The notes beneath the pieces were generated by a model. That model saw only the letters and a program-made list of their open reading frames with translations. It made no database searches and was not told the DNA's origin. Shown piece by piece: positions 14,899 through 16,217 of a DNA stretch of 64,000 nt; the first letter of the stretch is position 1, and each line of letters starts with the position of its first letter. Source of the stretch: Shigella phage sb1; the sequence record PQ666539. One strand, written 5' to 3'. The position numbers and the translations under genes were made by a program.

Positions 14899-16217
14899 TC
14901 ACACATAAAACACATCATAACGACCACGAGTGACACCAACATAAAGAAGCTGCTGAGCCAATTCAGCGTCTGCATAATGAATACAAGGCGTATAGATGAA
15001 AGCACTATCTACAGACATGCCCTGAGCTTTGTGGAATGTTGATGCAGGAAGTGCTTTCACTTTACTAAACTGCGATTTAGCATCCCAAAAATCACTCATG
15101 GAGCTTTTCCACCTTTATTCCAATTTTTATAAGTTTCTGCCGTTTTACCTAAAAATAAGTTAAACTTATACAGCTCTTCATCAGATGAAATTATTTTAAT
15201 CTTTTCACGATAATATTCATCATCGCCGTAAGTTTCTACTGTTAAATCCCAATGACGAATTAGATATTCTCCAGGAACACCACGAGATTTAACAAATGTT
15301 GATGTATACTCTGCTTCTATAATAAGAACTAATTGTCCGTTATTAAAAATAATTTCTGACACAGGCTTTCCATCAATTTTATATGTTTTAATTAATGGTT
15401 CCTGCATTACGATAATTTCACCAACGATAAAATCTTTATCAGTTTCAAAAATCTTTTTACGAATAATGTTATTTAACTTGTCAACGGATTTATTCGTAAA
15501 TGCCATTACGCGATTTTAAAACAAATCATCTAGTGATTTTACGATTGAAAAATAATTTACCATAAAATCGCGTAAAGCGGTATCACCAGTAAATCCACGT
15601 ACTCCATGGCCGTCAACAACTTTATCATAAATCCACTTACCGTTGCGAACATCAGTAGCTACATCAATAATAGGAGCATTACTACGTTTAACTTCAGTGA
15701 GTTCACACTGATAAAAATCTTTATGTGTAAAGAACGGACTGATATAAGCGGTGTTTTCTCCTGGGTCAACAGGTCTAATTTGCTTATTATCCCCTATTCC
15801 AATTATAGTACACCATGGCGGGATAGTTGAAAGTAGAATTTTGAATAGCTTTCTATCATACATTGACACTTCGTCGCAGATTAATACTCTGCATTTAGCT
15901 AAATCCGGTACTTCTTTTTGAACAAAAAGAACGTTTTCTTCATATGTTACCGGGTTAATTTTAAGAATACTGTGAATAGTACTCGCTTCTTTCCCTGATA
16001 GTTTTGAAAGAATCTTTTTAGCTGCATGAGTAGGAGCTGCTAAAATAATGCCAGTTTCGCCTGTAGATATTAAGGCTTCAATGATGAACTTAGTAAGAGT
16101 AGTCTTACCAGTACCAGCAGGTCCATTAATAGTTACATGATGTTTCTTTTCTTTAATAGCCCTCATAACGATGTTAAAGGCATTTTTCTGGCCTTCTGTC
16201 AAATCATCAAATGTCAT
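14899..16217 (-). CDS. dda: Dda DNA helicase (SF1B), interrupted by in-frame stop and 1-nt deletion
   Basis: Three collinear ORF-track pieces (233+136+66 aa) cover the whole helicase with Walker A GPAGTGKT; TAA about 15507-15509 and frameshift near 15100; span 1319 nt is one short of 440 codons. Confidence 0.9.

Follow-up and report, generated by a model that had tools for sequence, protein, structure and literature searches.

The ochre codon and missing base in the dda helicase gene of Shigella phage sb1 probably belong to a window-wide layer of sequence errors

The dda gene of Shigella phage sb1 carries, as written, an ochre codon and a single-base deletion that are genuinely in the sequence, yet on comparison with close relatives both are almost certainly artefacts of sequencing or assembly (probability about 0.85). 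We analysed the first 64,000 nucleotides of record PQ666539 (hereafter the window), which are collinear from the first base with Shigella phages pSs-1, sb2, sb3 and sb4 at ~96–97% identity and form the opening stretch of a Tequatrovirus (T4-like) draft genome, rotated to the pSs-1 start point. Atop ordinary divergence, the window carries a layer of changes on which selection has never acted: about 1.4% of G/C positions are read as T/A and, more rarely, a GG pair has lost one of its bases. In dda the ochre, three missense changes and, most likely, the deletion belong to this layer, which probably arose during sequence production (damaged or poorly amplified template, base-calling, assembly) and not in the phage, whose real dda almost certainly encodes an intact 439-aa SF1B helicase. 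Spectrum, coding neutrality, presence in essential genes and recurrence in sibling records all support the layer. The dda lesions matter for data quality only, as marks of a record-wide artefact and not of a biological feature of dda.

The dda locus and the distribution of its lesions

Read in frame 1, the 1319-nt locus encodes Dda up to F233 and then meets TAA; in-frame translation past the ochre runs on to K-A-P at codon 373, where TGA follows and the remainder is out of frame. As written, the locus is three open reading frames of 233, 136 and 66 aa (Table 1). Alignment with T4, Killian and EPIMAM01 placed the ochre (GAA→TAA) at codon 234 and the deletion at codon 374 (W374), where CCG TGG AGT has become CCA T-GA GT through the absence of one G, the plus-strand C between 15097 and 15098. 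Translation and alignment with T4 bore out the preliminary description in its identification of dda, the ochre, the single-base deletion, the 1319-nt span and the frame-shifted tail of 66 codons. The T4 junction it had quoted, CCA TGG AGT, needs correcting, in that T4 has CCG; sb3 and ECO07P1 also have CCA before TGG, as a natural variant. E99V and S250N are likewise common to relatives, as are the other amino-acid differences from T4, and, judging from the alignments, both substitutions and the CCA codon are natural polymorphisms.

The elements of a Dda-type SF1B helicase are all present in the fragments, namely a RecA-like domain with Walker A, an SH3-like domain 2B and a UvrD-like C-terminal segment (domain 2A, motifs V and VI); what the locus lacks as written is an uninterrupted frame of ~439 codons, which is broken by TAA at codon 234 and by a −1 frameshift at codon 374. 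With one substitution and one inserted base the gene again encodes a protein of 439 aa, which agrees with T4 Dda at 427 of 439 positions and aligns with PDB 3UPU along its entire length (E = 7e-296). In locus position, repaired length and its three Pfam regions it resembles T4 Dda (SF1B helicase, NP_049632; PDB 3UPU, 8GME, 8S9I), and its neighbours are homologues of gp30/dexA.2 and dda.1, as in pSs-1 and T4. Whereas the window dda is broken at two codons, the gene is intact in T4, as it is in pSs-1, sb2, sb3, UGKSEcP2 and Sfk20.

Table 1. Coordinates in the window of the dda locus and its lesions, of private intergenic indels, and of nonsense, shared and in-frame stop sites
Feature	Position	Strand	Remarks
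dda locus, SF1B DNA helicase	14899..16217	-	disrupted as written; two-base repair gives 439 aa
dda fragment 1, Dda residues 1-233, RecA-like domain, Walker A GPAGTGKT, ends at TAA	15516..16217	-	Pfam AAA_30 (E = 2e-24), AAA_19
dda ochre codon 234, GAA→TAA; plus-strand C→A at 15518	15516..15518	-	private to window
dda fragment 2, restart M238, Dda residues 238-373, SH3-like domain 2B, ends at frameshift TGA	15096..15506	-	Pfam PF18343 SH3_14 'Dda helicase SH3 domain' (E = 1e-58)
dda R298L (CGT→CTT)	15325	-	private G→T on gene strand; same error class as ochre
dda A311S (GCT→TCT)	15287	-	private G→T; GCT is the motif recurring among sites common to sb4
dda deletion junction ATGA, fragment 2 TGA overlapping fragment 3 ATG	15096..15099	-	one G of TGG (W374) lost
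dda fragment 3, last 66 codons, C-terminal part of domain 2A	14899..15099	-	-1 frame relative to fragment 2; Pfam PF13538 UvrD_C_2 (E = 1e-7)
dda R405S (CGT→AGT)	15006	-	private C→A on gene strand
A6 expansion (insertion), cef-motB intergenic region	11794-11799		private to window
Lost A, srd-modA intergenic region	17346		private to window
Private nonsense sites, 1-50 kb (part 1)	483, 1359 (gene 52); 4139 (denB); 7177, 7187, 8000 (rIIA); 10920; 11357; 14655
Private nonsense sites, 1-50 kb (part 2)	18101, 18499 (modB); 19576 (srh); 22938, 23061; 25377 (gene 41); 28408 (gene 42); 29296 (imm)
Private nonsense sites, 1-50 kb (part 3)	30028, 31081 (gene 43); 35668 (rpbA); 36676 (gene 46); 43926 (nrdH); 45401 (nrdD)
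Coding sequences with in-frame stops, 50-64 kb	52696-53586, 53594-53995, 54051-54578, 57599-58120, 62932-63279 (vs)		four GAA→TAA, one GGA→TGA; called against pSs-1 only
G:C→T:A sites shared by window and sb4	1110, 1122, 5796, 8663, 9569, 24835, 27681, 29296, 35396, 36273, 36631, 40689

Neither lesion was found in the other phage records searched. All six panel genomes (T4, pSs-1, sb2, sb3, UGKSEcP2 and Sfk20) have GAA at codon 234, and all six have the base that is deleted in the window. None of 499 matching phage records was identical to the window across the ochre, and IMG/VR gave no match to it. In 808 matching records the best hits covered 72 nt against a 71-nt query, so that the deletion occurred in none of them, and an exact DNA pattern for it had no match in IMG/VR or the JGI metagenomes, with five IMG/VR hits for the wild-type control pattern. 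An exact-protein lookup of the 233-aa fragment in a public assembly index likewise returned no record.

A layer of private G:C→T:A changes across the window

We called a change private where the window differed while at least four relatives all agreed with one another. Applied to 96 coding sequences and six to seven close relatives, this criterion yielded 413 private coding substitutions, about half of them (204) G:C→T:A. Enumeration of all invariant G/C sites in the 96 genes gave a neutral expectation of 12.2 synonymous, 166.1 missense and 25.7 nonsense changes for this class; the observed split of 21, 160 and 23 lies close to it, so nonsense changes are not depleted. The distribution over codon positions 1, 2 and 3 (67/29/31 for G→T and 32/29/16 for C→A) follows where G and C occur. 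A single class of change in excess and neutral to both codon position and coding effect, as an artefact layer should be, is therefore present in the window. The private transitions, with 133 synonymous, 40 missense and 0 nonsense changes, mostly at third positions, look like ordinary divergence under purifying selection.

The density of G:C→T:A changes is even, at 16–29 per 5 kb across 1–50 kb, with 1.43% of G/C sites affected window-wide and both strands involved (1.33% versus 1.03%). By our own calculation they showed no significant trinucleotide context (overall chi-square ~21, 15 degrees of freedom), the CCG context holding 9 changes versus 5.7 expected. The clean relatives sb3, pSs-1, UGKSEcP2 and Sfk20 have just 2–9 private G:C→T:A changes each, which in sb3 and pSs-1 amounts to roughly 0.05% of G/C sites.

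At the window rate, dda should hold 5.9 G:C→T:A events, and four were observed (E234*, R298L, A311S and R405S). Because the 1.43% rate predicts 0.70 nonsense changes in dda, with a probability of 0.50 for at least one, the ochre is what the background gives, no more than chance, and tells nothing particular about dda. All four private G:C→T:A changes in the gene are missense or nonsense. Its private transitions are five in number and all synonymous, from which we infer that the real dda gene is under selection.

Similar stops occur in genes that the phage cannot do without. Projecting every pSs-1 coding sequence onto the window revealed in-frame stops in 21 of 97 coding sequences in 1–50 kb and in 5 of 31 in 50–64 kb, for a window total of at least 29 stops, of which GAA→TAA and TCA→TAA changes account for nearly all. 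The private nonsense substitutions in 1–50 kb number 24, almost all of them GAA, GAG or GGA changed at the first base to T, or TCA→TAA (Table 1). Gene 43 (DNA polymerase) is cut into three pieces by two TAA codons, and the genes hit also include 41, 42, 52 (two stops), 46, nrdD and rIIA (three). In T4, genes 43, 41, 42 and 52 have long been classed as essential; with stops in them, the window sequence as written cannot be that of a viable, replicating phage.

We considered whether the stops might be read through. Stop-codon reassignment or suppression was rejected, as all three stop codons appear in frame, replacing E, S, K, Y and G, and the normal gene ends are unchanged.

Deletions and the alternative readings of dda

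Private indels are few: three in 1–50 kb, of which the dda deletion is the only coding one (the two others are intergenic; Table 1). The preliminary description had taken dda to be the only site with an indel apart from stp, and neither part of this survived comparison. Against close relatives stp has no indel, and a second private coding deletion lies at 55823/55824, where one G of GATGGTGT is missing on the gene strand, shifting the frame of a conserved 969-nt coding sequence (55043–56010, minus strand). All 501 of 501 matching phage records have the base that is missing at this second site. Each of the two deletions removes one G of ATGG on the gene strand, and they are the only two coding single-G deletions in the window. 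The dda deletion most likely stems from the same error process as the substitutions, an assignment that is statistically weak, the deletions being a different event type with only two in the window. We make this assignment with less confidence than that of the ochre, since T4 can do without dda and a real frameshift would be tolerated. The earlier suspicion that the deletion is a sequencing error was most likely right. The stp gene itself (1985–2065, minus strand) is an intact gene of 26 codons, with a single missense change, T19N (ACC→AAC), whose C→A type places it in the noise class.

Could dda instead be a real pseudogene in this lineage, the deletion and perhaps the ochre being genuine mutations in an otherwise noisy assembly? 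In T4, dda mutants survive, with DNA delay as their only phenotype (PMC3016281), and the rarity of indels, with dda the sole coding one of the three private in 1–50 kb, would also fit. We nevertheless regard this as improbable. An excess of non-synonymous lineage-specific changes in dda is lacking, all five of its private transitions being synonymous, with no sign of relaxed selection. Disabling lesions are not confined to a dispensable gene either: genes 43, 41, 42, 52 and 46 carry like stops, and the dda ochre matches the class and rate of stops in essential genes. Nor do related genomes share the lesions, by inheritance or otherwise, to judge from the 499 to 808 phage records that matched and from IMG/VR and the JGI metagenomes. 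A single-G loss of the same type, from ATGG, is found in a second conserved gene, and in sb4, the noisier sibling, four coding indels break the frame.

A narrower version would keep the substitutions as noise and take the deletion alone as real, giving either a natural dda-null isolate of this Shigella/E. coli Tequatrovirus or a C-terminal stretch of 66 residues made separately through the ATGA overlap; this too we think unlikely. Were the frameshift alone real, it would bear out in a small way that Dda can be dispensed with in the wild as in the laboratory.

More radically, Dda might be functionally split or recoded, through stop readthrough (reassignment or a suppressor tRNA) or as three polypeptides, the latter by re-initiation at M238 and at the ATGA overlap, with an AAGGTGG Shine-Dalgarno-like sequence 9 nt upstream. 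The deletion does yield an exact ATGA stop–start overlap, and the three open reading frames roughly match the domain boundaries of AAA_30, SH3_14 and UvrD_C_2. Yet essential genes carry like stops, and the ATG pre-existed out of frame in the natural CCA variant; the overlap is thus an automatic by-product, arising because the next G after that ATG was deleted. Both the readthrough and the three-polypeptide versions strike us as scarcely credible. We also rejected programmed frameshifting at CCA-TGA-G, where the junction is not slippery: to our knowledge it corresponds to no known slippery site or heptamer, and re-pairing of tRNA-Pro is impossible in either the −1 or the +1 frame.

Sibling records, candidate causes and consequences

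The sibling records sb2, sb3 and sb4 come from one study reporting four genomes, PQ666539 to PQ666542, in which phages were propagated as plaque-forming isolates, DNA was extracted with CTAB, libraries were made enzymatically (Twist, 50 ng DNA, with PCR) and sequenced on a NovaSeq 6000, and the SKESA assembly was selected for highest N50 (PMC11993411). The published genomes are ADG1 (PQ666539, sb1; 164,945 bp, GC 35.16%, 285 proteins), AKR2 (PQ666540, sb2; 165,034 bp, GC 35.49%, 254 proteins), CDR3 (PQ666541, sb3; 165,220 bp, GC 35.52%, 255 proteins) and TMC4 (PQ666542, sb4; 164,971 bp, GC 35.35%, 291 proteins) (PMC11993411). The protein count of ADG1 is inflated, at 285 versus 254–255 in the cleaner genomes, and its GC content is the lowest of the four. 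Over the first 50 kb, GC rises from the window through sb4 and sb2 to sb3, in agreement with the published order ADG1 < TMC4 < AKR2 < CDR3.

The excess recurs in independent records of that pipeline, some of it at identical sites. Both sb4 and sb2 resemble the window in genome type, start coordinate and laboratory pipeline, and also in an excess of non-synonymous private G:C→T:A changes and in GAA→TAA stops in essential genes. Errors are about six times fewer in sb2 than in the window, with 35 private G:C→T:A changes, five of them nonsense (GAA→TAA), and gene 43 split. Unlike the window, sb4 has many extra A:T→T:A errors; its private changes over 50 kb comprise 102 G:C→T:A and 131 A:T→T:A, with 25 nonsense. 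Its four frame-breaking coding indels include a single G lost in nrdD, and its dda is truncated at another position, by AAA→TAA.

Twelve G:C→T:A changes are common to the window and sb4 and occur in no other panel genome, against ~1.5 expected by chance as estimated from the two per-site rates (Table 1); 11 are missense or nonsense, with eight of the 12 at the G of GCT. These sites suggest a recurrent, sequence-specific error motif, part of the error layer thus being site-preferring, and such recurrence argues for a systematic production artefact as against random in-silico noise or real mutations. In-silico random mutation of a clean genome is unlikely as a source, the same error class being present in the deposited siblings and 12 sites recurring in sb4.

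The G:C→T:A changes could also have been real in the sequenced molecule, had a heavily oxidised, non-viable genome been amplified from one or a few templates. The purely G-targeted spectrum, as from 8-oxoG, the even spread and the absence of a selection signature would all agree with this. A systematic error fits better with the 12 changes that recur at the same sites, mostly GCT, in the independent sb4, and the phages were propagated as plaque-forming isolates (PMC11993411); we therefore consider a damaged template very improbable. It would in any case leave the verdict on dda unchanged, since the phage lineage itself would not have the lesion.

For the preferred reading, an artefact of sequence production, candidate physical causes are oxidation of G, a sequence-specific base-calling or assembly error near GCT, and a PCR template bottleneck of glucosyl-hydroxymethylcytosine DNA. 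8-oxoG pairs with A and produces a G→T/C→A library artefact (Costello et al. 2013, PMC3616734), which the window resembles in that the changes are exclusively G:C→T:A and would not arise in the organism. That artefact occurs at low allele fraction and with a CCG→CAG preference (PMC3616734), whereas the window changes are at consensus level, at 1.4% of G/C sites, with no significant overall trinucleotide preference and a GCT tendency at the recurrent sites. Consensus G→T at ~1% of G/C sites is far above the usual 8-oxoG artefact (PMC3616734) and would require some further circumstance, for example very low coverage or template passed through a severe bottleneck.

The preliminary description had proposed homopolymer-aware re-basecalling as a check. 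The error class found is not long-read homopolymer noise but a layer of G/C-targeted substitutions, and the siblings were sequenced on Illumina NovaSeq and assembled with SKESA (PMC11993411), so such re-basecalling is not the relevant check. Nanopore homopolymer or modified-base errors were rejected on the three private indels in 50 kb, the absence of a strong k-mer context and the Illumina sequencing of the siblings.

The window and its public siblings sb2 and sb4 contain hundreds of unselected G:C→T:A errors, which fragment genes, inflate gene counts and lower GC. Pseudogene, split-gene and amino-acid-variant calls from these three sequences are unreliable, including those for the helicase, DNA polymerase and rII, and the sequences are unfit for inference on gene integrity or variants until resequenced.

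Gene boundaries also differ at two places. At ~29067–29070, TTA stands in place of the imm stop codon, and the downstream small open reading frame, whose start overlaps it, begins with ATT; one G→T change turning an ATGA overlap into ATTA would account for both the altered imm stop and the downstream start. The start of the 61.1 homologue (23074–23076) is ATT instead of ATG.
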